From the sequence record PP180003: a stretch of DNA of 53,673 nucleotides; one strand, 5' to 3'. Every line of letters starts with the position of its first letter. Position 1 is the first letter of the stretch. This document shows, in pieces, positions 2,420 through 19,373 of the stretch. Source of the DNA: Escherichia phage mEp515. Both the position numbers and the translations under genes were made by a program. Below the pieces are notes generated by a model that saw only the letters and a list, made by a program, of their open reading frames with translations, did no database searches and was not told the DNA's origin.

Positions 2420-2851
2420 TTATTGCCCCCAGCGTTTTATAAATTCCTCGTTCAACTTAGTGTCACCAGACCATTGAACATTATGTTCAGCGCCGAACGA
2501 GTAGATCAGTTCGATTAGTTCGCTAAATTCTGCTTTACTCATCCGGCTGGTTGACGTACCCAGCACAACAAAACCTGATTTATCCAGGTTAGGGACAACG
2601 CCATATTTCTTAAGTCCGGCAGTAAATACCGCCTTCCAGTCTTCCGGCGACAGCTTTTTTCCGTACCAATTAACCTGATCGCTAATGTCGGTTAACAGCG
2701 CCCATAAAAGGCTATTTTGACTAAGCGAGCGGGTTTTCTCCTGGATGGTAATTATCAGCGGGCTTTTGCTATCAGACTGGATCTCTCTTATCTGCCTGAT
2801 AGCGTTTTCTTTTACGGCGTCGTTTACTATTTCAAATCTAATTTGCCTCAT
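2420..2851 (-). CDS. ninB: NinB (Orf-family recombination mediator)
   Basis: 143 aa; strong similarity to lambda NinB in my recollection (LIITIQEKTRSLSQNSLLWALLTDISDQVNWYGKKL, GVVPNLDKSGFVVLGTSTSRMSKAEFSELIELIYSFGAEHNVQWS). Confidence 0.85.
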   Translation of the reverse strand: MRQIRFEIVNDAVKENAIRQIREIQSDSKSPLIITIQEKTRSLSQNSLLWALLTDISDQVNWYGKKLSPEDWKAVFTAGLKKYGVVPNLDKSGFVVLGTSTSRMSKAEFSELIELIYSFGAEHNVQWSGDTKLNEEFIKRWGQ

Positions 2852-3569
2852 GGTTAGATAACGCCTCGTTTATTCTATTTGATGCAATTTCGAAATATTT
2901 TTCATCCTTTTCTATGCCGATAAAACGTCGGTTAGTATTCATGCAGGCAACGCCAGTAGTTCCGCTCCCCATACAGTTATCAAGAACTAAATCACATTCG
3001 TTTGTATATGTTTTAATTAAATATTCCATAAGCGCAACAGGCTTCTGTGTTGGGTGCAGCTTCGCACTATCTCGCGGAAACTCTAGTACCGTAACTGGAT
3101 AGCGTTTTGCGCCACTCACCGTAGTTACAATACCCGATGGATTGTAATTAGTAGATGTTTCCCTCCCTTTTTTGCGTTTATACGGCTTAAATCCCTCCCT
3201 CATTTGAGGGTTGTAAGTTGGCCGCTTGTCATAGAACACCAACACGTTTTCATGATTCTTAAGCGGAACGCGTTTCGCGTTAAGAAACCCCGTTCCTGCC
3301 TCTTTGCGCCAGATCCACTCATACCGAAGCATACCAATATTTGACGCGCCTAAAACTTTATCAAACGGAGTCTGTGCAGTCAGCACGATTGCCCCACAGT
3401 TTATGCGCTTGTATTCATTCCATAAAGACGTCAAATCAATAACGCTATCCCATTTGTTCCGCGTAGTCCCATACGGCAAATCACACAAAATCAAATTAAC
3501 GCTACGATCTGGAATAGACTTCATCAACTCCAGGCAATCGCCTGGCAATAATGTAACATCTTTATTCAT
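2838..3569 (-). CDS. DNA methyltransferase, beta-class (N6-adenine or N4-cytosine)
   Basis: 243 aa; motif IV DLPY (ILCDLPYGTT) near N-terminus and AdoMet motif LDNCMGSGTTGVA near C-terminus; no partner restriction enzyme seen. Confidence 0.8.
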   Translation of the reverse strand: MNKDVTLLPGDCLELMKSIPDRSVNLILCDLPYGTTRNKWDSVIDLTSLWNEYKRINCGAIVLTAQTPFDKVLGASNIGMLRYEWIWRKEAGTGFLNAKRVPLKNHENVLVFYDKRPTYNPQMREGFKPYKRKKGRETSTNYNPSGIVTTVSGAKRYPVTVLEFPRDSAKLHPTQKPVALMEYLIKTYTNECDLVLDNCMGSGTTGVACMNTNRRFIGIEKDEKYFEIASNRINEALSNHEAN

Positions 3570-3578
3570 GTTATAGCC

Positions 3579-3776
3579 TCATGACACACCGTTACTATTT
3601 TTCCATTGTGCCCGCGCATACATGATCGCCCGCAAAGAAATTAGACGAGAGCTTGTCATAAAAGCGCTTCTTAAGTACCTCATATCAACAACAACAGGCT
3701 TATCAGGATCGTCGCCGCGCATGTATTCAGCAATTGTGCTTAAGTCTTCCACGGTCAAATCTAATTCCCTATTCAT
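3579..3776 (-). CDS. Hypothetical protein (65 aa)
   Basis: ORF with AGGGGGG SD; within leftward operon. Confidence 0.4.
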   Translation of the reverse strand: MNRELDLTVEDLSTIAEYMRGDDPDKPVVVDMRYLRSAFMTSSRLISLRAIMYARAQWKNSNGVS

Positions 3777-3791
3777 GATCCAACCCCCCCC

Positions 3792-3998
3792 TTACACAAT
3801 CCGCATTGTGTTCCGTAATTCACCGCGCAACGCCTGCAAAGCGTAATGAATCGGCACAAAAGCCCGGTTAAATTTTACGTGCTTATACTTGCGCATTAGT
3901 GGCGGCGTATAAACCATCGTGCCGCAAGGATCGCATGTGAATTTAAAGTGAGATTCGTCAATAAACGTTTCTACTGAATAAAAAATTACCCGTCTCAT
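3792..3998 (-). CDS. Hypothetical protein (68 aa)
   Basis: ORF whose ATG overlaps upstream stop (ATGA). Confidence 0.4.
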   Translation of the reverse strand: MRRVIFYSVETFIDESHFKFTCDPCGTMVYTPPLMRKYKHVKFNRAFVPIHYALQALRGELRNTMRIV

Positions 3999-4552
3999 AA
4001 TTCCAACCCCGTTTCGCCGTTAAGTTTTTCAATCTCAAATATTGGTTTATCCGGTAGCAGGCCGTTATTTTTCCGGTATTCGTTCAGGAGGCTGTCAAAG
4101 TCAAACGCTAAATCATTAGCGTGACCGAATCGCCCTGGTTTAAACAGTGAGTAAAAATTAACCCCGTGCCTGTTTGGATCAACGCAAAGCGTTTCATCAA
4201 TCACCATTAAACGCAGAGTACGAGAAAGGTAATTCCACGGTATTCCCGTCTCAGCGCTAATGTCGCGCATACGCTTTTTAACGCTGTAGTCACTAAATAA
4301 CGACGCAACACGCTCACGACGTTCAGCATATAACTGTTTAATACGATAGCCCAGCAGACGGCGGCGGCGTCCAAAACATGTATATACGCGCTCGACGATA
4401 CCGTTTTTTATTAAGTGTTTAATTGTCTCAGGAAGTAACCCATCTTTATCATATCCAGCTAATAACCCCGTTTTATTGCGCAACTGGTGCATTGTTGCGA
4501 TGCCATCAAGTTCAAGGATATTGATAACTTTTGTTTCAAGTTCAGCGCTCAT
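3995..4552 (-). CDS. Hypothetical protein, possible winged-helix DNA-binding (185 aa)
   Basis: Start chosen at internal Met (MSAELETKV) preceded by GAGG SD; no catalytic motif. Confidence 0.45.
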   Translation of the reverse strand: MSAELETKVINILELDGIATMHQLRNKTGLLAGYDKDGLLPETIKHLIKNGIVERVYTCFGRRRRLLGYRIKQLYAERRERVASLFSDYSVKKRMRDISAETGIPWNYLSRTLRLMVIDETLCVDPNRHGVNFYSLFKPGRFGHANDLAFDFDSLLNEYRKNNGLLPDKPIFEIEKLNGETGLEL

Positions 4553-4631
4553 TGTTTTTAGCCTCGTTTTAAACGCGATAACAGCCACCAGAAAGCGGTA
4601 AACTTTCCGGTAAGCCGTTTGCTCATATTGA

Positions 4632-6047
4632 TTAAAAAGATGCGTTATTCTGGTTGTTTCGTTGGTTAAATCTGCCTGTGCGGTGATTCATAGACTGAAT
4701 ACACGCAGCAGCCGCGCGTGCCTGGTCGCATGGTAAAATGTTGCCGTTATCATCAAACCGCTGGTAAACAGTGCCAGATTTACCATGACGGTTTTTCGAT
4801 ACAATGATTTCCATATATTCGCGGGCTACAGACTGCTCATCGTAATATCCATCGCGGTAAACCATGATGATCCTGTCGGCATCTTGTTCAAGGTTCCCGG
4901 AATCGCGCAGATCTGAATTGTTAGGACGCTTGTTCGGTCGCTCCTCAACGCGGCGGGACAACTGCGCCAGCGCTAACACTGGAACGCGCAATTCTTTCGC
5001 CATCATCTTCAACGACCATGACAATTGCCCAACAGCGAGATCATGACGTTCGGCCTTAGCCAGTTTCATTAACCCGATGTAGTCAATCATTACCATACCC
5101 AGGTTTGGATGTTCCTGTTTCATCCGTTCCGTTGTGGCGCGTATTTCCTCAACCGTTAACTGCGACGCGTCAACGATCCACACATCAAGATTAGCAAGTG
5201 CGCTCATACCCTTGCCGACATGCGCCCACCCCTCATCATCAAGTTTTACCGGATTACGCAGGCAGTCTGTTGATAAATTACCAGCGCCAGCTATAGCGCG
5301 TTCAGTCATCTGATCGAGTGACATTTCAAGCGTGAAGAACAAAACGCCAACCCGCTGATCTTTACTGCCAGGGTAAGGGCGCTCAGCGGCAGCGCGGGCA
5401 ATTGTCAGCGCCAACGCAGATTTACCAGACCCAGGGCGTCCAGCTAAAAGCACCAAATCAGTAGCGTTAATGCCTCCCAACATCTCATCGAGTGGATCTA
5501 TCCCTGTTTTGATGTTGTCAGAATTAACACCGCATTCCATGCGCTTGCTTAAAACGTCCGTATATTCCTGTACCGCATCACGCAACAGAACAGGAATGAT
5601 CTTATCTTTCGTTACCTTTAATTTTGAATACCGGGAATCAAAATCTTTCATCGTCTCTTTGACGACCTCAAGCGTCCCCGTCTCCAGTTTGTAGCGCATA
5701 TCGTCGATGAGTTCCAACATCTGCCGCCGCTGGTGCTCTTCACGTAGTAGCTGTGCGTATCCCTTCAGGTTGGCAGCAGACGGGCACGATCTCGCCGTTT
5801 GCATTAGCGGTACAAAGTTTTCGTTGCCAATCTCATCGCCAACCAATAACGCGTCAATAAGATTCCTGTTTCTGGCTTGCGCCCTGATAATTTCAAACGC
5901 ACGTTTATACAGCGGAATCGTGAACACTTCAGGATCAAGAGTGGCGAGAACATCTTGCGCGTTAGGAGTAAGGCCGCCCAACAGCAGCCCACCGATAACT
6001 GACGCCTCACGTTCCTGCCGTAGTGAGTTTATTTGCTCAGTTACCAT
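4632..6047 (-). CDS. Replicative DNA helicase, DnaB family
   Basis: 471 aa; Walker A GRPGSGKSALALTIA, Walker B region VMIDYIGLM, DnaB-like N-terminal domain; strong GGAGGT SD. Confidence 0.85.
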   Translation of the reverse strand: MVTEQINSLRQEREASVIGGLLLGGLTPNAQDVLATLDPEVFTIPLYKRAFEIIRAQARNRNLIDALLVGDEIGNENFVPLMQTARSCPSAANLKGYAQLLREEHQRRQMLELIDDMRYKLETGTLEVVKETMKDFDSRYSKLKVTKDKIIPVLLRDAVQEYTDVLSKRMECGVNSDNIKTGIDPLDEMLGGINATDLVLLAGRPGSGKSALALTIARAAAERPYPGSKDQRVGVLFFTLEMSLDQMTERAIAGAGNLSTDCLRNPVKLDDEGWAHVGKGMSALANLDVWIVDASQLTVEEIRATTERMKQEHPNLGMVMIDYIGLMKLAKAERHDLAVGQLSWSLKMMAKELRVPVLALAQLSRRVEERPNKRPNNSDLRDSGNLEQDADRIIMVYRDGYYDEQSVAREYMEIIVSKNRHGKSGTVYQRFDDNGNILPCDQARAAAACIQSMNHRTGRFNQRNNQNNASF

Positions 6048-6081
6048 TATGTTATTACCTCCGGTTTACAAAATGGAAAAT

Positions 6082-6588
6082 TCAGGGTAAAGAAATACCG
6101 TGATTGCTATGAAAGTTATACATTCTTTCAGCTTCTTTTCTTGCTTTTACGGCATCATCAAATGAGTCACCGTAATAAACGTACATTGTTTTCTTTTTCC
6201 CATCAGACCCCCTTATACCTATTTGCGCCCGCCATTTATGGGTTTTCTTGTTCCACGTAACGCCAACGCATCCGCTAGTATTACTTGATGGCATTGTTTT
6301 GTTTCTGTTATTCTCCTTCCTTGTCACTATCCTTAAGTTTTCGATTCTATCGTCACCAGGTACATGATTTATGTGATCTATTTCCATTCCATCAGGAATA
6401 GGGCCGTTAAACATTTCCCAGATAATGCGGTGACGCCATGTGCAACAAATACCATTAACGCGTATAGTCCAATATCCGCGATAATGTTTACATCCAGCCA
6501 CGCTACCTGCTTTTATTTTGTTATTTGCACGGTTACAAGACCAATATAGAACGCCGTCGCTATATGTAAATAAATCATCCCACATCAT
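6082..6588 (-). CDS. HNH homing endonuclease with AP2-like DNA-binding domain (copy 1 of 4)
   Basis: RIIWEMFNGPIPDGMEIDHINH...NRIENLRIVTRKENN HNH motif then AP2-like C-terminus; start set at internal Met matching paralog N-termini (MMWDDLFTYSDG); ORF-track extension to 6690 overlaps upstream gene. Confidence 0.75.
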   Translation of the reverse strand: MMWDDLFTYSDGVLYWSCNRANNKIKAGSVAGCKHYRGYWTIRVNGICCTWRHRIIWEMFNGPIPDGMEIDHINHVPGDDRIENLRIVTRKENNRNKTMPSSNTSGCVGVTWNKKTHKWRAQIGIRGSDGKKKTMYVYYGDSFDDAVKARKEAERMYNFHSNHGISLP

Positions 6589-7705
6589 GACACCCAACCA
6601 TTTCAGGCCTATATACAAAGCGACCAATTTCGCCATAATCAGGGCTGTAAATGATAACCGCCGCGCAACGTTGCGATCTCCAGCCTCCATTAGTTGAATA
6701 AGCGTCTTTTCCCGCTAACGTGCCGTGGTGTTCAACTATGCCTATAGATGATTCTGTTACTGATTTATGGTGCAAATGTCCGACATGGACGTAAACATAT
6801 TTCGACTTGCCAAAATCCTCACGCCAGTCAGCTACGCAAGCAGACAATAAATTTTCAGGCTTTTTGATAGTGTGCCCGTGGTGGTAAGCAAGGAATGTTT
6901 TTCCGTACTGTGTGTGGTGGACGATGGCAGGGGACACATCAACCGTCACGCGCGGTTCATCTTCGTAAAAAGCCGCCAGCGCCGCACGTAGCCAGATCAT
7001 TCCTGACTGGTCGTGATTGCCGGATAACACCTGGATTTCAACATCCTTATGATTTAATAACATCTTCCCTACCGCCCGCCGGACAGACCGGATCGCTACA
7101 TAAACAAGTTTTGCGTAGCGACTATCTTGATCAAGAATGTGCCCGCTTGTTGGTGTCACCGGGACCATACCGTCAGAATGAAGTAGATCGCCACCGAGGA
7201 GCAGTACTGCTTTTTCAGACATAGGAGCAGCGCCAACCGCGTAGTCAAAGAAGTCATTCAACACGCGCTCAGCGATCCCAGTATCGTAGCTCTCACCGCA
7301 TTCAGCTTTATGAGCAAGTGCCCCGATATGCAGGTCAAACACCGGATAAAGAGCCAGGCTTTTTTGAAAATCAATTTCCGGCACTGGCACAGCCTCCGCG
7401 CGTGGTATTTCATCCGTGAAAGCGTCGCGGGCCGCTTCCATTAACTGTTCCATTTCGTCGCGGTCACGGGCTGTTTTAATCCAGCGCATGATCACATTGC
7501 CATCCTTATCGACTAGCAACGACTCGCCATTAACACCAAAACCAGGAGCGCGGCGCGTTGATAATAAACCGCGTTTTGCCAGTTTTGCTCCCAGGCGTTC
7601 GACATTGCGTTTAGACATGCCGTACTTTTCAGCGATCTGTTTGTACGTTAATCCGTTGTTATATTCAGCGATCAATTGCTCATCACTGATTTTTCTTTGC
7701 GACAT
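6575..7705 (-). CDS. HTH domain fused to calcineurin-like metallophosphoesterase
   Basis: N-terminal HTH (LTYKQIAEKYGMSKRNVERLGAKLAKRGLL); phosphoesterase motifs DLHIG, GDLLHSDG, GNHD, GHLHH; ATG at 7705 preceded by GGAGGG. Confidence 0.6.
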   Translation of the reverse strand: MSQRKISDEQLIAEYNNGLTYKQIAEKYGMSKRNVERLGAKLAKRGLLSTRRAPGFGVNGESLLVDKDGNVIMRWIKTARDRDEMEQLMEAARDAFTDEIPRAEAVPVPEIDFQKSLALYPVFDLHIGALAHKAECGESYDTGIAERVLNDFFDYAVGAAPMSEKAVLLLGGDLLHSDGMVPVTPTSGHILDQDSRYAKLVYVAIRSVRRAVGKMLLNHKDVEIQVLSGNHDQSGMIWLRAALAAFYEDEPRVTVDVSPAIVHHTQYGKTFLAYHHGHTIKKPENLLSACVADWREDFGKSKYVYVHVGHLHHKSVTESSIGIVEHHGTLAGKDAYSTNGGWRSQRCAAVIIYSPDYGEIGRFVYRPEMVGCHDVG

Positions 7706-7738
7706 AATGTTAATCCCTCCAGTCAACAAAATGTATAC

Positions 7739-8482
7739 CTACTTACACGCGAAAAGTTCAGACACCCAAAGTTGACCCTTAGCAGTAAATAGTGATTGGA
7801 CGTAACCTTCAGTCGAACATTTTACCACTCCATAGCCTTTGTCTACGAACCACTGTTTGAACATACGCCCGCCTCGCTTAATTCGCGTATCGTACACGTC
7901 AACCTGTTCAAGTTTTTTGTTGAGTTGCGTAGCAGTCATACCCAAAGGCTTGGCAACCTGTGTAGCGTTGCGATGCTGTTCGTTTTTTGCAATAGCATTA
8001 TAAACAGCCGCTTTCGGTGCTAATTCCTTATTTTCCAGCGCCAGACGATCAACTTCTTTCTGTGCTAATAGTTTTTGCTCTACCTCATCAGCCCATGCGC
8101 GAGCCGCCGCCACCGGATCAGTGAAATCCGGCAAAGCTGGTCTAAAACCGTAATGTCCATTTTCACGCAAAGCAGGGAGAACATCCTCGCACACCCAATC
8201 CTGGAAGCGCTCAGCTAATTCTACTTTTGATCGCATCACCAGACGGTAAACATCTGATTCATGAATTAGCGTTACGCCTTGCGGAATTGGTTCAAAACCC
8301 AAACGCCCCATTTCAGGGCATTTAATTTTAATCAATGACTTACAGTGTTCCCTTATAGCGTTTTGCGGCTTTGCGTACCCAAGCGCCCGCGCCACATCCA
8401 TTGCAACAAAAGCAGGTTTACCATCATAAATTACAGCAGTGATTTTATTGTCATCAAAATTAAAGCACATCAACTCAGACAT
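7739..8482 (-). CDS. Phage antirepressor (Bro-N domain plus KilA-C-like domain)
   Basis: N-terminus MSELMCFNFDDNKITAVIYDGKPAFVAMDVARALGY is Bro-N-like; start at internal ATG 8482 with GGAG SD. Confidence 0.7.
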   Translation of the reverse strand: MSELMCFNFDDNKITAVIYDGKPAFVAMDVARALGYAKPQNAIREHCKSLIKIKCPEMGRLGFEPIPQGVTLIHESDVYRLVMRSKVELAERFQDWVCEDVLPALRENGHYGFRPALPDFTDPVAAARAWADEVEQKLLAQKEVDRLALENKELAPKAAVYNAIAKNEQHRNATQVAKPLGMTATQLNKKLEQVDVYDTRIKRGGRMFKQWFVDKGYGVVKCSTEGYVQSLFTAKGQLWVSELFACK

Positions 8483-8613
8483 TGTAATTTCTCCGTAAAA
8501 CGCTCTACAACGCAAAAATCCCACCGCGTAACACGTTTGCACATGTTGCAGTGTCTTATTGCGCCAGAGGCGCTATCAGGTGGCTAATTTTTATTTACAG
8601 ACTGGTAGGTAGG

Positions 8614-8715
8614 TTATGGATTGACAAGAAGGAACAAACCGCCGAACAACGCTACGTTAACAGCGATTGCCGCAGCGATAGCAAATGCCAGGGCGAAAAC
8701 GTGTTTACCGTCCAT
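8614..8715 (-). CDS. Small hydrophobic peptide (33 aa, MDGKHVFALAFAIAAAIAVNVALFGGLFLLVNP)
   Basis: Single predicted TM helix; AGAGGA SD; preceded by the same 22-nt element found upstream of the antirepressor. Confidence 0.3.
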   Translation of the reverse strand: MDGKHVFALAFAIAAAIAVNVALFGGLFLLVNP

Positions 8716-8848
8716 TTTAAAATCCTCTCTAAAACGCTCTATAACGAGCTAAATAGCTAAAGGTATGCAAGTGTAGCACCCAATGCTTTTTAGCTCGCTG
8801 GTGAGCTTGTTTTGCGGGTAATTTTGTGTTTTTGCGGATCGTGGTTGG

Positions 8849-9904
8849 TCAAAGAGCGCCACATCGTGTATCACGTAGCGTTTTTGGTTTAAGCAGGAAA
8901 TCAAGTGTCGCTGTGAAGCCATTGCCGAAGTAAAAATCTGAAGCCGTGTTTTTGAACGCTTCAAAGTAGGCAACAAAGCCGTTGATGCTTTTGTCTTTCA
9001 GGTAGTCAGTGAACGCATAAATCTTGCGTTCAAGATCCCGATCAAGTTCGGCATGTGGCAACAGGCCATCAAACGCGCTGTTAAATGCCTCCACTACGTC
9101 GGCAGCGTTTGCAGTGGCTGACAGATTGCGCCATTTTTCAGCATCAGCCAGATACCCATCGAATTTAGTTACCCGGCAAATGTTAATAGGCTTAGGTGTT
9201 CCGCCACGGCTACGCCATTGCGTTAAAGCCCACTCAATCACTAATGTGATCTCATCCTCCGTATATGCTTTACGTGTTTTTGTTTCTGTCAGTAGTTCAA
9301 TGAATGGCTTGGTATCACGACATTTGCATCCAGCCTTGTCGTTGTAGAATGCCAGACAACGCAATGCAGCTTCGTTCACACCATCATGACTGACTGTTTT
9401 TTGTTCACTTTCGACAATACACGTAGTGTATATATCTTTTTCTCTTTCTTCTTCTTCTAATTCTAATTCTAATTCATGACCCTTTCTTGACCCGGTCATG
9501 ACCCTATCATGACCTTTTTGTGTTGGATTGATTAATTTTTCTAATTTTAATTGTTCCTTCGCTGTGTTTATGGCGGCCCTGTACGCGCTTTTAGAAGTCA
9601 TTGATTGGTCCAGCCTTTTCAATAACTTTAAACAAGTTATGTGGCCTTGAGAACATTCAAACAAACCAATTTCGATGAAGTATTTCATCATTTCTTCTAT
9701 GCGTTTTTCAGTAGATCCGACGTTTCTCGCAATGATTCTCGCGTCATGTCGTAGGTCGAATGTTAGATTGTGCTGATCCACGTCATAAGTTATCAGTTCT
9801 AGGCAATACCAATAAAGCCCGTAACCTTCCAGGCCATAATCTAACAAAACGTTTTGAAGTTTTTCATCGCGGTTAGCATCGCTATCGTGCTTGAACCACT
9901 TCAT
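8849..9904 (-). CDS. Replisome organizer / replication initiation protein (DUF4373-like N-terminus)
   Basis: 351 aa; N-terminus MKWFKHDSDANRDEKLQ typical of phage replisome organizers; central acidic linker; contains iteron-like repeats; GGAGG SD. Confidence 0.5.
   Translation of the reverse strand: MKWFKHDSDANRDEKLQNVLLDYGLEGYGLYWYCLELITYDVDQHNLTFDLRHDARIIARNVGSTEKRIEEMMKYFIEIGLFECSQGHITCLKLLKRLDQSMTSKSAYRAAINTAKEQLKLEKLINPTQKGHDRVMTGSRKGHELELELEEEEREKDIYTTCIVESEQKTVSHDGVNEAALRCLAFYNDKAGCKCRDTKPFIELLTETKTRKAYTEDEITLVIEWALTQWRSRGGTPKPINICRVTKFDGYLADAEKWRNLSATANAADVVEAFNSAFDGLLPHAELDRDLERKIYAFTDYLKDKSINGFVAYFEAFKNTASDFYFGNGFTATLDFLLKPKTLRDTRCGAL
9474..9514. repeat. Iteron-like direct repeats: four copies of TCATGACC(C) at 10-12 bp spacing, flanked by AT-rich tracts (candidate ori)
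   Basis: Copies at 9474, 9486 (one mismatch), 9496, 9507; adjacent (TTCTAA)3 and AT-rich 9515-9560; located inside the initiator gene as in lambda ori. Confidence 0.4.
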
Positions 9905-9907
9905 AGA

Positions 9908-10162: not shown

Positions 10163-10467
10163 CGTGTTTTCTCCTATGGTTAGAGTGAACGCGCGGGCGG
10201 GTATCCCATTAGCATTAGATAGCAGTGACTGACCGCTCAACAGATCCCGCCATTGCGTGATATTTGTTTTTCGCATCGCAGCGACACCGGGTTTTTAAAG
10301 AGCTTAAGGCGTCGGCCTTTTTGTGCTTTCCCTTATCTTTTTCCTTGCGTCATTGCAAGTATGGCTTTACCTTGTCAGCAAGTTTACAGAATGGCGCTAA
10401 CAGGTCAAGGCTTGAAAAACACGTTTTGTGACTTGCATCAAACTTTTTTAGGTTATAGGGTAGCGAC
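10163..10467. promoter_or_regulatory. Immunity-region intergenic switch: divergent promoters/operators between cI-like repressor and leftward early operon
   Basis: 305-bp non-coding interval between divergent genes; TTGCAAG-type half-sites; candidate -35 TGACTT at 10429-10434. Confidence 0.4.
10272..10303 (-). promoter_or_regulatory. nutR-like element (boxA-like GCTCTTTAAAAA plus short hairpin) on leftward transcript
   Basis: Minus-strand reading AGCTCTTTAAAAACCCGGTGTCGCTGCGATGCG; 26/33 identical to plus-strand copy at 19470-19502. Confidence 0.3.
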
Positions 10468-11115
10468 ATGAAAACAAAATGGTATGACTTAGCAAAGCAG
10501 CTCATGCGGGCGCAGGGCATGAGTCAGGATTCATTGGCTGATCTCATGGGGATAACCAAAGGTGGCCTTTCGCACTGGCTGAACGGTCGCCGTGAGCCAA
10601 ATCTTGAAGATATTGCGCGGATCATGCGGGCGCTTGGGCGTCGGCAGTTTACTGTCACACATGACGGGATGGTTATCGATGATTCTGTTTCTAACACGTT
10701 ACCGGGAGCGCCACCGCGTGATTTAGGCAGTTACCCGGTTGTTGACTGGAAGGATGTAGCAAACAATATGGAAGGCACATGCCGATCAACATTGCCACAC
10801 ATTACTACTAGCGTTATTTGTTCGGATGATAGTTATTGGCTGGTTGCTAAAGGTGAATCAATGAACGCACCGCAGGGGTTAAGCATCCCGGCGGGGACTA
10901 TGATACTCGTTGACCCGCACGCGCCAGCTATTGACGGAAAACTTGTTATAGCACAACTGGAGGAAGGGCAGATACCTACGTTTAAACAGTTGATTATTGA
11001 TGGAGGCCGAAAACTTTTGCGTTCACTGAATCCGTTGTATCCGCCGATCCCTATGAATCCAGAATCAAAAATCATAGGCGTGGTGGTTGATGCGAAGATC
11101 GTAAACCTGCCATAA
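10468..11115 (+). CDS. cI-like repressor (HTH_XRE N-terminus, S24 LexA-like autopeptidase C-terminus)
   Basis: 215 aa; HTH MSQDSLADLMGITKGGLSHWLNGRREP; C-terminal GESM serine motif and downstream Lys. Confidence 0.8.
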   Translation: MKTKWYDLAKQLMRAQGMSQDSLADLMGITKGGLSHWLNGRREPNLEDIARIMRALGRRQFTVTHDGMVIDDSVSNTLPGAPPRDLGSYPVVDWKDVANNMEGTCRSTLPHITTSVICSDDSYWLVAKGESMNAPQGLSIPAGTMILVDPHAPAIDGKLVIAQLEEGQIPTFKQLIIDGGRKLLRSLNPLYPPIPMNPESKIIGVVVDAKIVNLP

Positions 11116-11238: not shown

Positions 11239-11267
11239 ATTGACTCGGTGTTTTACGGGGCGTATAT
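11239..11267 (+). promoter_or_regulatory. Strong sigma70-type promoter (pL-like) for rightward early operon
   Basis: -35 TTGACT (11239-11244), 17-bp spacer, -10 TATATT (11262-11267); TACAAAATGG motif abuts the -35. Confidence 0.6.
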
Positions 11268-11522: not shown

Positions 11523-11560
11523 CGCTCATTAAAAATCTGGTCAGCCGCTGGAAGTGCGGC
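11523..11560 (+). promoter_or_regulatory. nutL-like site: boxA-like CGCTCATTAAAAA plus boxB-like hairpin GCCGC-TGGAAGT-GCGGC
   Basis: boxA differs by one base from lambda boxA CGCTCTTAAAAA (from memory); hairpin 9 nt downstream; sits between promoter and N-like gene. Confidence 0.4.
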
Positions 11561-11617
11561 AATTAACGAAGATGATTTTTTTATTAAGTATCATCAAGGA
11601 TATACGGAGATCAGATC

Positions 11618-11908: not shown

Positions 11909-11938
11909 TACAAAATGTAAATAATCGGAGGTGACATT

Positions 11939-12061
11939 ATGGTTATCGAGGCGCTCAAATTCAAACTTGCGGTAGCGGAAATGCTTCATGATGCCGAAAT
12001 GTGGAGCGCCGCGAATAAAGCCTTATACGTAGTGTTAACAGCGAAGGAGATCAAAGAGTGA
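11939..12061 (+). CDS. Hypothetical small protein (40 aa)
   Basis: GGAGGTG SD; stop overlaps GTG start of erf. Confidence 0.3.
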   Translation: MVIEALKFKLAVAEMLHDAEMWSAANKALYVVLTAKEIKE

Positions 12062-12699: not shown

Positions 12700-13109
12700 T
12701 GAGCTTAAATTCAATTACGCTGGGCGGTAACGTTGGGAATGATTGCGAAACGAGATTTACATCAAACGGGAAAGCAATCGGTAGTTTCTCACTTGCTGTA
12801 CAACAAGGTTACGGTGATAACAAACGTGCAATGTGGGTAACGTGTTTAATATTAGGTGATAGAGCAACAAAATTAGCCGAACATATTAGGAAGGGGGATC
12901 ACCTGGTTGTAAGTGGTCGGTTGGATGTTAGGGATTGGGAAGGGCAGGACGGAAGAAAAAACAAATCAGTTGAGGTTATCGTGTCAGATATTGAATTTAT
13001 GAGCGGAAATAAACGCAGCGACCAAAACCAAAACAGACAACGCGAACAGCAACAACAATATAACCAGGATAACGGCGGGCAGGACTGCGACCAAGATATC
13101 CCATTTTAG
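12699..13109 (+). CDS. ssb: Single-stranded DNA-binding protein
   Basis: 136 aa; OB-fold N-terminus, Gln-rich tail ending in acidic DIPF motif. Confidence 0.85.
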   Translation: MSLNSITLGGNVGNDCETRFTSNGKAIGSFSLAVQQGYGDNKRAMWVTCLILGDRATKLAEHIRKGDHLVVSGRLDVRDWEGQDGRKNKSVEVIVSDIEFMSGNKRSDQNQNRQREQQQQYNQDNGGQDCDQDIPF

Positions 13110-13138
13110 CGAATATAATCAATTAGTTAGGTGTTATT

Positions 13139-13663
13139 ATGAGTAATGCCGAACCATTGAAAATATGTTGTACTTGCGGGGCACTATTGCCCCTTTCTTG
13201 TTTTCATAACGATAAGGGCAAGAAAGACGGCAAATCATGTAGATGTAAAGAGTGCGCCAAAAAAGCCACTAGAGAATGGAGTGAAGCGAATAAAGAAAGA
13301 AAAAAGAAAAATGATAGCGAATACGCAAAAACAGATAAAGCCAAAAAGAAAAGGGAAGAATACAGAAAATCGCAAAGAGGTAAAGAGATCGCGGCTGAAT
13401 CAAGAAAAAAATGGAATGAGAAAAACCCTAAAAAATACCACGCCCAAGTGATGGCACATAACGCTATCCGCGACGGCAAATTAATTAAACAACCTTGCGA
13501 AGTATGCGGCAGAGATGACCGCGTACACGCGCACCATTGCGATTATGATAAGCCGCTCGATGTTATGTGGCTTTGCCCGATATGCCATCGAGAGTGGCAC
13601 AACGAACACGGTGAAGGAGCTAATGCACACGACGAGGTATTAAGTGGTGAGCGAATATCTTAA
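13139..13663 (+). CDS. HNH endonuclease-like zinc-finger protein with lysine-rich region
   Basis: C-terminal CEVCGRDDRVHAHHCDYDKPLDVMWLCPICHREWH is an HNH signature; N-terminal CxxC pair. Confidence 0.5.
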   Translation: MSNAEPLKICCTCGALLPLSCFHNDKGKKDGKSCRCKECAKKATREWSEANKERKKKNDSEYAKTDKAKKKREEYRKSQRGKEIAAESRKKWNEKNPKKYHAQVMAHNAIRDGKLIKQPCEVCGRDDRVHAHHCDYDKPLDVMWLCPICHREWHNEHGEGANAHDEVLSGERIS

Positions 13664-13928
13664 AGCACCGCCACCGCCACCGCGAACAAAAGAACAAGTA
13701 TTAAAAGAAGCCCGTGATCATATCGATCATGGGCTTTTTTTATGCGGAACGGCGGCGGATCGAATGGCGAAAAGATTTAGTGACCTGTACGCAAAACAAA
13801 TATGGTTCGACAACTGGCAGGCAAGTTTTTACCCACTGCAAAGAAAACCGGATATGCATTGGCCTGAATATGTCGATCCACGTATGCGCAAATATCGCGG
13901 GCGTATGGGCCAGGTTATTAACGATTAA
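13644..13928 (+). CDS. Hypothetical protein (94 aa)
   Basis: GTG-start ORF overlapping upstream gene end. Confidence 0.4.
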   Translation: MVSEYLKAPPPPPRTKEQVLKEARDHIDHGLFLCGTAADRMAKRFSDLYAKQIWFDNWQASFYPLQRKPDMHWPEYVDPRMRKYRGRMGQVIND

Positions 13929-13942
13929 TGAGGTATTAAATC

Positions 13943-14167
13943 ATGATCGAAGATAAAGAAGTTGACGTAGAAATTCCTGACAGCGCTGATGAGCTTATCA
14001 CTTTCGGCGGCGGCCTGTATGAGTTCGATACATCGGCTGGGTGGGTTGATAAGTGGCCTCAGCCTACTCGCCAGGAATTAATTAACCGCAAATCATTCGG
14101 CGAAGATGCAGAACGCCTTGCTAATAACAAGTGGCTTAACAAGTTCATTGCGGAGGGTGATAAATGA
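13943..14167 (+). CDS. Hypothetical protein (74 aa)
   Basis: ORF in early operon. Confidence 0.45.
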   Translation: MIEDKEVDVEIPDSADELITFGGGLYEFDTSAGWVDKWPQPTRQELINRKSFGEDAERLANNKWLNKFIAEGDK

Positions 14168-14277
14168 ACCTTGCAAAAATTGCCGCATTGCTTGCGGCTT
14201 TGTCTATCGCTGTGCTGTATCTCAGCGTATCGCTTTATATAACGGTAGCGATCATTAAACTCATTGCTAACATGTGA
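14164..14277 (+). CDS. Small membrane peptide (37 aa, MNLAKIAALLAALSIAVLYLSVSLYITVAIIKLIANM)
   Basis: ATGA overlap with upstream stop; single TM helix. Confidence 0.3.
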   Translation: MNLAKIAALLAALSIAVLYLSVSLYITVAIIKLIANM

Positions 14278-14285
14278 GGTTAATC

Positions 14286-14405
14286 ATGAAAGTCGGTAAG
14301 GATATTGTGACGGTCGCGTTTTGCATTATTTGCTTCCTATTTGTGGTTGTGTTTTGTGGCGGATTTGCAGCGCTGGTTAGCTTTATTTTCAGGGGATTGT
14401 TGTGA
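14286..14405 (+). CDS. Small membrane peptide (39 aa, MKVGKDIVTVAFCIICFLFVVVFCGGFAALVSFIFRGLL)
   Basis: GAGG SD; hydrophobic; stop overlaps next start. Confidence 0.3.
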   Translation: MKVGKDIVTVAFCIICFLFVVVFCGGFAALVSFIFRGLL

Positions 14406-14677
14406 TGAAAACATGGGATGCAAAGACTGGTGATCTTGTTGTATTGCCTGAATATCGTGATGACCCTGGCCTGGTTGTACTGAATAAGATGTATAACGAT
14501 CTAGATCGCCCGCTAGTGGTTAAATACCTGGACGGAACAATCATAGAACCGCGCTACTTTGATGATATTGAACTGAAGGCCCGCAACGTTCGCGTTAAGC
14601 CGTTCCGGGCTTATGTTGAGGACCACTGGCGGAAATTGTTCGCCGGACTGAATGGGATGTACGGCGTATGGCTATAA
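14405..14677 (+). CDS. Hypothetical protein (90 aa)
   Basis: ORF, translationally coupled. Confidence 0.45.
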   Translation: MKTWDAKTGDLVVLPEYRDDPGLVVLNKMYNDLDRPLVVKYLDGTIIEPRYFDDIELKARNVRVKPFRAYVEDHWRKLFAGLNGMYGVWL

Positions 14678-14859
14678 AGGAAGTAAAGGTCAAAGACCTG
14701 AAAGGCGGTGAGCGATTAAAGGCGTGGTGGGGTCGCGAGTTTACAGCCGCTGCCTTCATGATCATGCAGGGCGGGGAGGTCGTTATATACGATGAAGACC
14801 TGAAGGAAGTCGGCAGGTGGCATCTTGAGCAATATATCGAGGTGTTAGATGAAAATTAA
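14668..14859 (+). CDS. Hypothetical protein (63 aa)
   Basis: ORF. Confidence 0.4.
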   Translation: MAIKEVKVKDLKGGERLKAWWGREFTAAAFMIMQGGEVVIYDEDLKEVGRWHLEQYIEVLDEN

Positions 14860-15181
14860 ATTCCATAAAGGTTATGATTCGGTCACTAACAAGTTATCGC
14901 TATTTATTGAGTTCGAGCGCCGGATCGTGGTTGTTCCTTATTCTCGGCGCTTTAATGATGCGGCAGGGCGGCGGCAATTCGCGTTAGACATGTTGTTACG
15001 TGGCTGCGGCCTTATGCGCCCGCTATCTGATTTGAAACGGATGATGCCGGGATCGTTCGGTCAGGTTGATGAAATAGAAATAAGCCCGGAAGAACTGAAG
15101 CGGGAGCGTGATTTATTCCTTTCAAGCGAAGGAAACCCGTTTAATTCAGAAACAGAAATGAAATGGCATCACCCACTATAA
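14849..15181 (+). CDS. Hypothetical protein (110 aa)
   Basis: ORF. Confidence 0.45.
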   Translation: MKIKFHKGYDSVTNKLSLFIEFERRIVVVPYSRRFNDAAGRRQFALDMLLRGCGLMRPLSDLKRMMPGSFGQVDEIEISPEELKRERDLFLSSEGNPFNSETEMKWHHPL

Positions 15182-15194
15182 AAGGATAAATATC

Positions 15195-15815
15195 ATGAAC
15201 GACATTAAAACAGCTTATTCACTAGGCAGCGATGGCATGTTAATCACTCGCTACACTGAAGACGCAAGTTTTCATGAAGTGGAAACGAAGGATTATCACG
15301 AAGTATTAAAAGATATGGAAGCTGGCGCGTATGACGCAGATTTGAATCTGGCTTTACAGATTGTTGATATTATGATGGACGCGTCGATCCGCGATTATGT
15401 GTCTTTAAACGCTGAAGAAAAAACGGCTGTGGCTCGTTATGTCTTCTGCCTAACTTTCGTGAAACGAATGGAAGAGGAATATGGGCGCGTGCCAGTGCCG
15501 GAAGAAATTGACCCGCTGGCGTTCGGAAGCGCTGTTATTTTCCCGTTAGATGAAAATCATACTGGTAGCGTTGCGCTGCATTCTATGCGCGGCGTAATGA
15601 AATGCATCTTTGAGGCTAAAGCGCTACAGAAGTGCATTGATGAAGGGCATGACGAAGAAGACGTAAAAGCGATCATGCCGTTGTTTTATGGCGAAATGGT
15701 TGGGAACAACATGCGCGCAAATGATTTAGGTGTGCAGGCTGCCATAACTGTACTTAACGAAGCGCGGAAAATGTCGCAGCCAATGCCGGAACCTGAAAAA
15801 CGTGTACTGCATTAA
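15195..15815 (+). CDS. Hypothetical acidic protein (206 aa)
   Basis: ORF; acidic composition; no motif recognised. Confidence 0.5.
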   Translation: MNDIKTAYSLGSDGMLITRYTEDASFHEVETKDYHEVLKDMEAGAYDADLNLALQIVDIMMDASIRDYVSLNAEEKTAVARYVFCLTFVKRMEEEYGRVPVPEEIDPLAFGSAVIFPLDENHTGSVALHSMRGVMKCIFEAKALQKCIDEGHDEEDVKAIMPLFYGEMVGNNMRANDLGVQAAITVLNEARKMSQPMPEPEKRVLH

Positions 15816-15820
15816 CATCG

Positions 15821-15880
15821 TGATTGCGATCACATAAATATACATTTTGTGTTGTGATCGCATATCCGTTTTGTAAACTG
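15821..15880. promoter_or_regulatory. Intergenic inverted repeat TGCGATCACA / TGTGATCGCA flanking a TACATTTTGT motif (candidate operator or internal promoter)
   Basis: 10-bp arms separated by about 18 bp containing TATACATTTTGT; lies upstream of ORF 15915. Confidence 0.35.
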
Positions 15881-15914
15881 AAATCAAAAGGTTTACGGCA
15901 CGGAGGAAAACAAG

Positions 15915-16133
15915 ATGGCAAGCGAATTAATGCTTTATTGTGTTGAAGGTGGCGTGGGACATGATGCCTACGTCGCCGGGAAAAGCTATCCAGCAGATGA
16001 AGTGCTTTCTAATATGCACTTCCGGGAAAATGAAAACCAGGTGTCTGTGTGGAAGCGATGCGTTGATGGCATTGAGGTAGTTAGCCTCGAAAGATATTTG
16101 GGTAAATTTGACTACGCATTGATCGAGGCTTAA
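15915..16133 (+). CDS. Hypothetical protein (72 aa)
   Basis: ORF with GGAGG SD. Confidence 0.45.
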   Translation: MASELMLYCVEGGVGHDAYVAGKSYPADEVLSNMHFRENENQVSVWKRCVDGIEVVSLERYLGKFDYALIEA

Positions 16134-16231
16134 CTATGGACGAAACATTGCTATTCATGTGCATTTGCTGGGGTTTTATTGCCTTATGCCTGTTTATCAG
16201 GTGGTTTATTGAATACCATATGAGGTGATAT

Positions 16232-16426
16232 ATGGAACAGAAAACTGATTATAGAATACCTGACAACCTGAAGTTAGTTGGCATTGGTTTTGGTTGTCGT
16301 TTTGTATCTGACGCAAACGGGGCGATTTATTTAGTGCGCATCATTGATGGCGTTCAACATATAAGAAGGCTAGGACTTTACATCAAAGCATTTAGAAGAG
16401 GTTATTTGAAAACTCATGAAATTTAA
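16232..16426 (+). CDS. Hypothetical protein (64 aa)
   Basis: ORF. Confidence 0.4.
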   Translation: MEQKTDYRIPDNLKLVGIGFGCRFVSDANGAIYLVRIIDGVQHIRRLGLYIKAFRRGYLKTHEI

Positions 16427-16619
16427 ACAGTATAAAGAATGGAAGATTCCAGAAGAAGCGACAAAGGCAGCGCCCGGAATTTTTTCGGGCGTTTATTTTT
16501 ATATGGGCGGTAAATGGTATTTCGGCAGCAGGCCGGATCACTATTATCAAGAATTATGCAAATCTCACACATGGGACATTAATGAACGCGTGCAAGGCGG
16601 TGTAATAGACGAGGTTTAA
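16416..16619 (+). CDS. Hypothetical protein (67 aa)
   Basis: ORF. Confidence 0.4.
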   Translation: MKFKQYKEWKIPEEATKAAPGIFSGVYFYMGGKWYFGSRPDHYYQELCKSHTWDINERVQGGVIDEV

Positions 16620-16620
16620 A

Positions 16621-16857
16621 ATGATTAATGGTTTTTTAAGCTGGTTAAGAGTGTGGTTTTTTGCCACGCTTTTCGTTTTTTTGGCGTTCAGCGGTGTCAT
16701 TGTCATATTTACGCTGGCGATGATGTTCATTACATGGTCAGTACCTGAATTTAACAATCTTGGAAGTATTTTTGCTGTCGCCCGCGCCATGTTTGCTTGT
16801 AGCGCATTTGTTGGTTTTTGTTGGAGTGTTTCGCCTGATTGGGATGATGAATGGTGA
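16621..16857 (+). CDS. Small membrane protein (two predicted TM helices)
   Basis: 78 aa; hydrophobic segments WFFATLFVFLAFSGVIVIFTLAMMFI and AMFACSAFVGFCW. Confidence 0.45.
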   Translation: MINGFLSWLRVWFFATLFVFLAFSGVIVIFTLAMMFITWSVPEFNNLGSIFAVARAMFACSAFVGFCWSVSPDWDDEW

Positions 16858-16861
16858 TCCT

Positions 16862-17095
16862 ATGGCCTTGTTCAATATGTCAGAACTGCAATTCAACGCC
16901 GTAAAAGCTGCCGCCCGCGCTGCACTTTCTGCTTGCAAAGCGGAGGTAGAGAAAAACGGCTACAGCGATAAAGCCACGCGGCTGATATTAGAAAAGCATT
17001 ATCGCAAGGTCGCCCCACTAATCAGCATTGAGCGCTTTGTGTGGTTGGTGGGGTATTTAAACAACCGTTGGGGGACGGAACAAGATTATTTCTAA
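16862..17095 (+). CDS. Hypothetical protein
   Basis: Start set at internal Met (MALFNMSELQ) to avoid overlap with preceding gene. Confidence 0.4.
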   Translation: MALFNMSELQFNAVKAAARAALSACKAEVEKNGYSDKATRLILEKHYRKVAPLISIERFVWLVGYLNNRWGTEQDYF

Positions 17096-17104
17096 GGGGG
17101 CGTA

Positions 17105-17644
17105 ATGAAAAATGATTTTGGAGGCAGCCACACTCCTAAGGAAATTAAAGATCTATGGCAGACGCCTAAACCAGTTTTCAGAGGAATGGACCGCGAATTT
17201 GAATTTGTCGCTGACGTGGCGGCAAACAAGGAAAATGCGCTAGTTCCTCGGTATATAACCGAAGAAATGGACACGTTGCATTATCCGTGGGGAGCTGTGG
17301 CAATGCCTGGTGAGTATGTCTGGCTTAATCCGCCATATTCTAAACCGGGGCCATTCGTTGAGAAGGCGGCATTAGAACATCAACGAAATCACATTGGCTG
17401 TGTAATGCTGTTGCCCGCTGACATTTCTGTTAGCTGGTTTATGAACGGCGTGGATACGGCAAACGAATGCCGATTAATCACGCGCGGGCGGCTGGCGTTT
17501 ATCAATGCTGCGACTGGTAAGCCAGTAAGCGGAAACAATAAAGGGAGCTTGTTTTTGATCTGGCATCCACGGTGCAGACATGAATGTATTTTTACACACA
17601 TAACACGTAAAGAGCTATACGCAAGAGGTGCAGATAATGACTAG
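17105..17644 (+). CDS. Phage N6-adenine DNA methyltransferase (Dam-like)
   Basis: 179 aa; catalytic NPPY motif (VWLNPPYSKPG); size and layout typical of phage orphan Dam methylases. Confidence 0.8.
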   Translation: MKNDFGGSHTPKEIKDLWQTPKPVFRGMDREFEFVADVAANKENALVPRYITEEMDTLHYPWGAVAMPGEYVWLNPPYSKPGPFVEKAALEHQRNHIGCVMLLPADISVSWFMNGVDTANECRLITRGRLAFINAATGKPVSGNNKGSLFLIWHPRCRHECIFTHITRKELYARGADND

Positions 17645-18134
17645 TGCAGCAGATTTACTACGAATCGCAGCGGAAACAATTGAGCAAAGAGGTAAACAAA
17701 ACGGCTACGACAGAAAAGAGGAAAAATCAGCGCCAAAAATAGCCACTATATACAACGCTAAGAAGGGCGCAAATTTAACCCCACTTGATGTATGGGATCT
17801 GATGATTTGTCTTAAGGAGGCGCGTTTAGAGGCTATTTTGGTTAATGGCAGCGATCCCACTGACACTTTGGTTGACCTAATCAGCTACAGCGCACTAAAA
17901 GCTGAGCAAATATTGAATGATCTGGATGAAGAGTTAAAGAAAAATCAGTTCACTGCCGCCAATATTAATGATGGAATAATAAATGACGCAGCAATAACAA
18001 GCTGTAAGGGATTGCCGCCTTCAATGCTTAAACCTCAGTGTGGCTGTATTTCAAATCGGCTTGATTTGAGTTTTGACAGATCTGAAGCTATTCGCGACAA
18101 GAGGTATGACCCAAATGAAAAAGGTGACAATTGA
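17637..18134 (+). CDS. Hypothetical protein (possible nucleotide pyrophosphohydrolase-like domain)
   Basis: ORF with AGAGGTG SD; functional guess is weak. Confidence 0.4.
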   Translation: MTSAADLLRIAAETIEQRGKQNGYDRKEEKSAPKIATIYNAKKGANLTPLDVWDLMICLKEARLEAILVNGSDPTDTLVDLISYSALKAEQILNDLDEELKKNQFTAANINDGIINDAAITSCKGLPPSMLKPQCGCISNRLDLSFDRSEAIRDKRYDPNEKGDN

Positions 18135-18618
18135 CAGGTTATTGGCCTGCGTTTATGTCGCCGTTTTCGTGATCATCAACCTAATTGTTAACCATTGCGG
18201 CCCGTGGGTGATTCCTATCACTACGGTAGCCGCTGTGTGTGTCAATATGATGATCCGCGACTTCCTGTTATATGACGGCGGTATCAAGTGGTCGGCGACA
18301 ACATGCGCCGCCGCTGGCGCAATCACTGTGCTGATAAATTACGACGCCGGAATGGTAGCGATCGCGTCATTTGTTGCGGTTGTTTCCGGTGCACTTATTT
18401 CTGGCGGCGTTTACCGGGTTTTACCTGGTGACTTTGATTCAAAACGATGGCCTGCAAATATAGCGTCAGCAATAGGCGATGCGTTGATTTTCCCTACGCT
18501 ATCGTTTATGGCATTCATGCCGGAAATATCAGCAATGCAATTCATATCCAAAATGGCGGCGGTAACGGTGATCACTATCATCATGCGCCGCTATTTTACG
18601 TTTGAGGGTAGAAAATGA
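18115..18618 (+). CDS. Integral membrane protein (4-5 predicted TM helices)
   Basis: Strongly hydrophobic segments throughout; start uncertain (18106 or 18115). Confidence 0.5.
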   Translation: MKKVTIDRLLACVYVAVFVIINLIVNHCGPWVIPITTVAAVCVNMMIRDFLLYDGGIKWSATTCAAAGAITVLINYDAGMVAIASFVAVVSGALISGGVYRVLPGDFDSKRWPANIASAIGDALIFPTLSFMAFMPEISAMQFISKMAAVTVITIIMRRYFTFEGRK

Positions 18619-19373
18619 GCAGGGGTAAACATTGGTTTAATAATTGGCTTAGAAATTGGGTCGTTTGGTCGTTGTACGACGGCAGCGGGTACGCCGTCAA
18701 AGATTGGGCGGAAGCAGGATATAAGTGCTATTGCTTCAACTATGACGGCGCAAATCACGGCGATTATGAAGGCGTTAAAATCATTCATCCAAATATTGAA
18801 TACGTTAACGTATGGATTGACAGTCACTTCCTGGTGATGTTCTCGCCTGAACTGTCAGTTTACCCAGATCCTGATATTATCCTGGGCTTCCCGCCGTGCG
18901 ACGATCTCGCCGTGTCTGGCGCTCGCTGGTTCGCTGATAAACGGAAAAAAGATCCTGACTTCCAGGTGAAGGCGGCGAATAGCGCAAAACTGGTAGAAAA
19001 ACTGGCGGATATGCACAACGTGCCGTGGATGGTGGAAAATCCGGTGGGAGCACTGTCAACGCTATGGCGCAAACCTGATTTTATTTTCAACCCTTGCGCT
19101 TACGGTGGCTACCTGCCGGAAGACGACAAACATCCTGCTTTCCCTGATGTTTACCCTGCGCGCGACGCGTATACAAAGAAAACTTGCATATGGTGCGGCA
19201 ACGGATTCAAACAGCCGCTTTTTAGACCTGTAGATCTTAACTCTGGCGATAACCCTGGGTGGGCGAAAACCGGAGGCAGGACGAAACGAACAAAGATGAT
19301 CCGCTCACTAACTCCGCGTGGCTTTGCCCGTGCTGTATTCCTGGCTAACCATAACAGCGCTTTACCGGACTGA
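18615..19373 (+). CDS. DNA (cytosine-5) methyltransferase-like protein, short and atypical
   Basis: 252 aa; motif-IV-like GFPPCDD (Pro-Cys) and motif-VI-like WMVENPVG (ENV); no target-recognition domain at this length. Confidence 0.4.
   Translation: MSRGKHWFNNWLRNWVVWSLYDGSGYAVKDWAEAGYKCYCFNYDGANHGDYEGVKIIHPNIEYVNVWIDSHFLVMFSPELSVYPDPDIILGFPPCDDLAVSGARWFADKRKKDPDFQVKAANSAKLVEKLADMHNVPWMVENPVGALSTLWRKPDFIFNPCAYGGYLPEDDKHPAFPDVYPARDAYTKKTCIWCGNGFKQPLFRPVDLNSGDNPGWAKTGGRTKRTKMIRSLTPRGFARAVFLANHNSALPD

Follow-up and report, generated by a model that had tools for sequence, protein, structure and literature searches.

Three solitary DNA methyltransferases of different families in the genome of the temperate coliphage mEp515

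Three methyltransferase genes in a relative of mEp021

The genome of Escherichia phage mEp515 (sequence record PP180003), a stretch of 53,673 nucleotides that is referred to here as the window, contains three open reading frames (ORFs) for DNA methyltransferases. One lies on the minus strand at 2838-3569 and encodes 243 amino acids (aa); the other two lie on the plus strand at 17105-17644 (179 aa) and 18615-19373 (252 aa). An original prediction, made from the nucleotide sequence alone, had described them as solitary enzymes of three different classes, with no cognate restriction endonuclease in sight. Pfam, NCBIfam, PADLOC and the annotation of the related phage mEp021 bear this out: the three proteins belong to three different families, a beta-class N6/N4 amino-methyltransferase, a small phage Dam-type N6-adenine methyltransferase and a short phage Dcm-type C5-cytosine methyltransferase, and no cognate nuclease was found by these means. 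The finding is real yet ordinary; the GenBank record of mEp021 already annotates each of the three genes as a methyltransferase, and the short Dcm belongs to a family with a published function.

The relationship to mEp021 (MH706966.1) is close. Megablast of the region 16700-20800 returned this phage at 99.6% identity across the entire query, and five more phages of the mEp021 group at 86-91%. In a direct comparison by blastn, the first 22 kb of the window are 97-99% identical to mEp021 outside the stretch 8500-9367, where identity is 90.7%, and outside three replaced segments; over most of 1-22000 the values lie between 96 and 99%. An integrase gene opens the window at position 186, and the mEp021 record opens in the same way. 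Because of this high identity and the shared integrase-first layout, we place the window as the complete genome of a sibling of mEp021 and assign it to the mEpimmI group, which comprises Nus-dependent, non-lambdoid temperate coliphages (PMC11893012).

The protein encoded at 2838-3569 matches PF01555 over aa 25-230 (E 1.6e-29, 103.9 bits against a cut-off of 26.7), phrog_67 (E 2e-73) and the PADLOC model MTase_II (E 1.1e-81), and its sequence relatives in the PDB are the DpnA-like M1.HpyAVI, CcrM and MboIIA. Motif IV (DLPY, aa 29-32) precedes motif I ('CMGSGTT', aa 198-204, with GSGTT at aa 200-204), in keeping with the beta class to which the enzyme had been assigned. Its description as a DPPY-type methylase, however, needs correction, as motif IV reads 'CDLPYGTT'. 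Since the same 'CDLPYGTT' is present in the closest relatives, which come from Klebsiella, Brochothrix and Lactobacillus phages, DLPY is a trait of this type of allele and not a mark of decay. With other PF01555 enzymes (M1.HpyAVI/DpnA-like, CcrM, M.MboIIA and YhdJ) the window enzyme shares the domain, the small size and the circular-permutation order of motif IV, target-recognition domain and motif I; it differs from them in having DLPY rather than DPPY, and in a central region that is exchanged relative to the mEp021 allele. Judging from its motifs, it is most likely an N6-adenine rather than an N4-cytosine methyltransferase. It scores far below the cut-offs of the CcrM equivalog (82.9 bits versus 830) and of the YhdJ-type model PRK11524 (76.3 bits versus 292), and its target is therefore not inferable from CcrM (GANTC) or YhdJ.

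At the DNA level the exchanged region is sharply bounded. Positions 1-3056 and 3492-7719 are 99.1% and 96.9% identical to mEp021, respectively, whereas the 435 bp between them (3057-3491) have no similarity to mEp021 by blastn. On the minus strand this segment encodes about aa 27-171, that is, motif IV and the whole target-recognition region, and we read it as a clean intragenic cassette replacement relative to mEp021. The protein as a whole is 56% identical to mEp021_05 and is near-identical to it over the C-terminal 75 aa, which hold the S-adenosylmethionine (SAM)-binding motif. Methyltransferases of Klebsiella Weberviruses share 75% identity with the window allele, and enzymes from Brochothrix, Lactobacillus and Bacillus phages share 61-67%. 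Furthermore, the gene is absent from the phages mEp554 and mEp013, in which small ORFs directly follow NinB, and in megablast none of 5,426 complete E. coli genomes matches it. Taken with the internal swap, these absences mark it as an exchangeable accessory gene of the phage group. That sibling phages differ by a swap of the recognition region within a single gene is of interest to phage-host epigenetics.

The 179-aa protein encoded at 17105-17644 matches PF05869 (E 5.5e-52, 176.3 bits against a cut-off of 28.1) and passes the cut-off of the TIGR01712 equivalog (142.9 bits against 97.05). The NPPY motif reported for it ('WLNPPYSKPG') is present in the translation at aa 74-77, and the protein is 100% identical to mEp021_30. 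In its NPPY motif, its size (~170-180 aa in this family) and its place upstream of NinG, RusA and Q, in a nin-like region, it resembles the small Dam proteins of T1, HP1 and VT2 type, with no notable difference, and it is a standard T1/HP1-type phage Dam. The T1, HP1 and VT2 enzymes methylate GATC, and by analogy the window Dam would methylate adenine at N6 within this sequence.

A short C5-type enzyme with a DNMT3-like predicted fold

The 252-aa protein encoded at 18615-19373 matches PHROG 757 (phrog_757, 'DNA methyltransferase') with E 1.2e-86 over aa 5-248. Although it had been called atypical, its family is among the commonest of phage methyltransferases: tblastn found it in 1,517 of 50,697 phage records, with hosts including Escherichia, Klebsiella, Salmonella, Shigella, Campylobacter and Vibrio, and a protein search returned at least 7,743 clusters among 8,000 candidates scored. 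Among the clusters listed, lengths range from 215 to 262 aa, a few truncated entries aside, and where a source name is given, which is so for a few of them, it is mostly 'DNA cytosine methyltransferase'.

The catalytic residues of this family were examined in an alignment of 31 members. Invariant positions comprise G23, S24 and G25 of motif I ('YDGSG', aa 21-25), which aligns with the motif I region of DNMT3B; P93, P94 and C95 of motif IV ('PPCDD'); E141, N142 and P143 of motif VI ('ENP'); K188 in the motif VIII region ('KKTCIW'), where the neighbouring K189 is conserved in at least 90% of members; and the C-terminal 'IRSLT.R' block. Motif IX/X of the short Dcm is 'IRSLTPRGFARAV'. The two sequences from which C5-methylase-like motifs had been proposed, 'GFPPCDD' and 'WMVENPVG', are both found in the translation. 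The occurrence of PCDD in place of the canonical PCQ had been noted as an oddity, but the family consensus is PCTD and DNMT3B has PCND. Since the residue after the catalytic cysteine varies in this way, being Thr in most members, Asp in the mEp-like clade and Asn in DNMT3B, we see in 'PCDD' no sign of inactivity.

Only PHROGs, the family profile and structure prediction resolved this protein. Compared directly with PF00145 it gave no match at E up to 0.01 or up to 1, and a direct sequence search of the PDB gave a chance match only (E 1.4). Similarity to the mammalian DNMT3A and DNMT3B and to M.HhaI and M.HaeIII (PF00145) is thus marginal at the sequence level: PF00145 matched 14 of the 31 family members weakly (best E 1.3e-06), and the family profile had weak PDB matches to DNMT3B (E 0.05) and M.HaeIII (E 0.9). 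The AlphaFold2 model, in contrast, is confident (predicted local distance difference test (pLDDT) 89.1, predicted template modelling score 0.87), and the best 50 Foldseek matches in the PDB are DNMT3A, 3B or 3C without exception (best E 3e-07). The predicted overall fold fits solved C5-methyltransferases, which supply all of the best structure matches, better than it fits other Rossmann enzymes; an alignment to a non-methylase fold, raised earlier as a possibility, was not seen.

The model also bears on how the enzyme might recognise its target. That the protein is C5-methylase-like stands, and the further proposal that it has no room for a target-recognition domain is largely right: the motif VIII strand (aa 190-195) is followed by about 28 residues, mostly coil in the model, before the motif IX helix (aa 224-231) is reached, and neither the alignment nor the model has a sizeable target-recognition domain between these motifs. 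A conserved 30-residue insert at 159-187, seen in both, may substitute for it. The short Dcm therefore combines a complete catalytic core (SAM-binding loop, PC cysteine and ENx glutamate) with a rudimentary target-recognition region. It differs from HhaI-type enzymes in that its motif VIII-IX region is far shorter than their target-recognition domain, and from Type II C5-methyltransferases in lacking a partner restriction enzyme. For the field at large little changes; the value of these observations is corrective, in that an enzyme taken as atypical belongs to a common phage family with DNMT3-type enzymes as its closest structural relatives.

A function for the short Dcm family has been described in phage K42. 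In all four K42 escape mutants selected on retron Ec86 (Eco1), the lesions fell inside a 711-bp dcm gene or shortly upstream of it (10.1101/2023.08.16.553469). Expression of K42 Dcm was toxic only when Ec86 was present; the enzyme raised 5-methylcytosine (5mC) in multicopy single-stranded DNA (msDNA), as measured by mass spectrometry coupled to liquid chromatography (LC-MS), and a C82A/E128A/K175A/K176A mutant was inactive (10.1101/2023.08.16.553469). In the same study, Dcm was encoded by 34 of the 35 sequenced Ec86-sensitive phages, and K42 was 95.4% identical to KarlJaspers (Bas06) (10.1101/2023.08.16.553469). Later papers cite the Dcm-retron result as established. The Dcm gene of KarlJaspers, bas06_0055, is likewise 711 bp long, and the protein it encodes shares 63% identity with the window Dcm over 232 residues (E 2e-107); C82, E128, K175 and K176 of K42 Dcm align with C95, E141, K188 and K189 of the window protein. 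The earlier verdict that the activity of the 252-aa protein is uncertain appears too cautious, given this identity and the 5mC found with the Dcm of K42. A literature search returned no methylome of a phage with a short Dcm of this family and no genome-wide map for any of its members.

The Drexlerviridae members of the family (KarlJaspers, K42, phrog_757) share with the window Dcm the length class of 225-260 aa, the catalytic residues, offset by 13 positions, and the same predicted DNMT3-like fold. The window Dcm differs from those of KarlJaspers and K42 in a 15-aa N-terminal extension and in having PCDD rather than PCTD. The settings differ as well: KarlJaspers is a virulent T1-like phage in which Dcm neighbours a helicase, whereas the window Dcm closes a cassette, described below, in which it follows Dam, a DUF6378 protein and a VUT-like membrane protein, in a temperate phage. 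Temperate phages of the mEpimmI group carry a known retron trigger, a point that may interest specialists.

Operon position and the probable role of the three enzymes

The methyltransferase genes lie in two divergent early operons, between which stands the gene of a CI-type repressor (HTH_3 and Peptidase_S24 by Pfam, with mEp021 annotation in agreement; 10468-11115, plus strand). Read from a helix-turn-helix (HTH) gene at 10276 in the direction of the excisionase gene, the leftward (replication) operon encodes, in order, a replication protein, a Bro/ANT protein, a 384-aa HTH protein, an HNH_3+AP2 protein, DnaB, the beta-class methyltransferase and NinB, with the methyltransferase gene directly upstream of that for NinB. 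After the repressor gene, the rightward operon encodes Erf, SSB, several small products, Dam, the DUF6378 protein, the membrane protein, Dcm, NinG, RusA and Q. Terminator-like hairpins are present upstream of methyltransferase genes in the early operons, and work on the mEpimmI phages found that both operons need the N-like protein Gp17, acting at nutL, nutR1 and nutR2 (PMC11893012). Because the three genes sit in operons that depend on Gp17 antitermination, we expect the enzymes to be made in lytic growth and to be silent in the lysogen. It follows that the methylome of a lysogen, which had been suggested as a check, is a poor test and would probably give a false negative.

No restriction-type nuclease was found among the neighbours with Pfam, NCBIfam and PADLOC or in the mEp021 annotation, a search that did not cover every small ORF of unknown function. 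The only neighbours recovered by these scans were NinB, DnaB, a homing-type HNH_3+AP2 protein, Bro/ANT, DUF6378, NinG and RusA, and PADLOC picked out nothing besides the homing endonuclease and the two amino-methyltransferases.

The HNH_3+AP2 gene (6082-6690, minus strand) lies between the genes for DnaB and the 384-aa HTH protein. As a candidate for a hidden restriction partner it was rejected: it matches homing-endonuclease models, and mEp554 and mEp013 lack it at this position. In mEp021 another HNH gene, its second, precedes the tail-fibre J gene.

We consider it probable, at roughly 0.8, that mEp515 is a temperate mEpimmI coliphage whose three solitary methyltransferases are transcribed along with its early lytic genes and act on the phage DNA as it replicates. 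Host DNA would be modified incidentally, and the phage would gain protection from methylation-sensitive host restriction. A known cost of such enzymes is that retron defence senses them (10.1101/2023.08.16.553469). Neither avoidance nor enrichment of the Dam and E. coli Dcm sites is seen in the phage genome (GATC, 252 observed versus 245 expected; CCWGG, 122 versus 126). Such unavoided sites are weakly compatible with protection, although the counts do not inform on specificity.

Several points weigh against this interpretation. Sequence does not settle whether the benefit lies in anti-restriction, in regulation or in packaging. The 252-aa protein has no Pfam, NCBIfam or PADLOC match, and it has Asp after the catalytic cysteine where most of its family has Thr. 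For the DLPY enzyme, the preference for N6-adenine over N4-cytosine draws on a single residue, the Asp of motif IV. E. coli MG1655 is dcm+. Nevertheless, control msDNA from this strain, with no phage enzyme, had little 5mC (10.1101/2023.08.16.553469), and for this reason the phage Dcm may not behave as a simple copy of the host Dcm. Moreover, CCWGG was assumed for K42 Dcm from the E. coli enzyme and backed only by CCTGG mutants of the msDNA stem (10.1101/2023.08.16.553469).

These last points lead to the strongest of the alternatives, in which the 252-aa C5-fold protein does something other than sequence-specific methylation of CCWGG. It could be a relaxed or short-motif methylase, it could transfer another group (for example carboxymethyl from carboxy-S-adenosylmethionine (Cx-SAM)), or its substrate could be single-stranded DNA, RNA or a nucleotide. 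The scant ~28 residues that link motif VIII to motif IX would suit such an enzyme, as would the fact that its best structural relatives, DNMT3A and DNMT3B, recognise only CpG; the host alone left msDNA poorly methylated whereas the phage enzyme raised 5mC, and the specificity was assumed and not mapped. However, the LC-MS product in the K42 study was 5mC itself, mutation of CCTGG in the msDNA abolished the retron response, and neither the window nor the mEp021 record holds a CmoA-like Cx-SAM synthase or another hypermodification gene. On balance we judge such an activity unlikely.

Slightly less likely still is that at least one of the genes is an inactive remnant, or serves a purely regulatory role such as timing replication or packaging, with no protection from restriction. 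In E. coli K-12 the host itself methylates GATC and CCWGG, and Dam together with a CCWGG-specific Dcm would be redundant there; in addition, the beta-class gene is dispensable, as its absence from mEp554 and mEp013 attests. Against this, none of the three ORFs is interrupted and each has its full set of catalytic motifs, conservation of Dam and Dcm extends over the phage group, and manual analysis placed a cytosine methyltransferase in the core gene set of the mEpimmI phages (PMC11893012).

The four-gene cassette and its membrane protein

The genes for Dam, the DUF6378 protein (17637-18134, plus strand; PF19905, E 2e-08), the membrane protein (18106-18618, plus strand) and Dcm overlap at every junction and together span 17105-19373 on the plus strand. 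The start of the DUF6378 gene overlaps the end of the Dam gene, and DUF6378 has the same position in two relatives, L003 and L004, in which the cassette occupies 4494-6747 and 4679-6705, respectively. As had been proposed, a multi-pass membrane protein adjoins Dcm, the stop codon of its gene (18073/18106-18618, depending on the start) overlapping the Dcm start in the sequence ATGA. All sequenced mEp phages retain the order of the cassette, as do prophage relatives with a Dcm only 67-79% identical, and a search of 5,426 complete E. coli genomes found the cassette in 35. Among the E. coli rows listed, the Prokaryotic Genome Annotation Pipeline names Dcm either 'DNA cytosine methyltransferase' or 'hypothetical protein'. 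The label 'phosphofructokinase' that PHROG attaches to the DUF6378 protein looks unreliable.

For the membrane protein, TTG at 18073, ATG at 18106 and ATG at 18115 are candidate starts. Its AlphaFold model has six long helices at low confidence (pLDDT 63.8), and the mEp021 annotation gives six transmembrane segments. The protein has no Pfam match of its own, its PHROG match is phrog_4899, of unknown function, and a comparison of the model with BFVD gave nothing below E 0.47. Close relatives form 12 clusters only; a profile search of 1.84 billion representatives extended the family to 260 relatives, and 8 of the 10 distant relatives tested passed the gathering score of PF02592. In hhalign, the profile of the membrane protein matched one of distant relatives and YhhQ with 99.7% probability (E 1.5e-25), whereas a comparison with E. 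coli YhhQ alone was not significant (E 0.1). These profile links suggest a divergent, short member of the VUT/YhhQ superfamily (PF02592, COG1738), a connection visible only by way of intermediate sequences. With YhhQ, the preQ0 transporter of E. coli, the window protein has six predicted helices in common; it is shorter (~167 aa versus 221 aa), and it is set in a phage without deazaguanine genes. The VUT/YhhQ-like neighbour led us to consider a 7-deazaguanine system, which was rejected, as neither the window nor the mEp021 record has DpdA/TGT or preQ0 genes. Homologues of YhhQ in phages have been noted before, with no correlation to any modification group (Hutinet et al. 2019).

Least probable among the alternatives is that Dam, the DUF6378 protein, the VUT-like protein and Dcm form one DNA-modification module for which the membrane protein imports a precursor or cofactor. 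The end-to-end overlap of the four genes, an order preserved in all sequenced mEp phages and out to relatives with Dcm 67% identical, the recurrence of the cassette in E. coli genomes and the apparent distant relation of the membrane protein to the YhhQ preQ0-transporter family would all fit it. However, overlapping genes are common in phage early operons and are no proof of shared function, KarlJaspers carries a short Dcm with no VUT-like neighbour, the membrane family is a narrow one, and both the missing DpdA/TGT and preQ0-pathway genes and the E value of 0.1 for YhhQ similarity speak against import of this kind, as does the survey by Hutinet et al. A functional link between the membrane protein and the methyltransferases is possible but unsupported, and the combined proposal that the short Dcm is a relaxed or short-motif C5 methylase working with the coupled Dam, DUF6378 and VUT-like proteins in an import-dependent module is similarly improbable. 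Points of specialist interest are the target of a Dcm family that is nearly devoid of a target-recognition domain, the specificity that the swapped beta-class segment may hold and the role of the VUT-like protein.

Other features of the window and its relatives may be noted here. The segment 7720-8499 (minus strand) is not shared by mEp021: the window encodes an antirepressor-like protein with Bro-N and KilAC/ANT domains (7739-8542), in the place of which mEp021 has a larger 'zinc-ribbon domain' gene. In the relative L004, a Lar-type restriction-alleviation gene (PF14354; 9031-9258) lies just downstream of the Q-like antiterminator gene, which fits an anti-restriction theme in the corresponding part of that genome. 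Over the whole window, GAATTC is strongly under-represented, with 2 occurrences against 12.7 expected from a maximal-order Markov estimate, and CTAG (29 observed versus 74 expected) and GGCC (128 versus 196) are under-represented as well.

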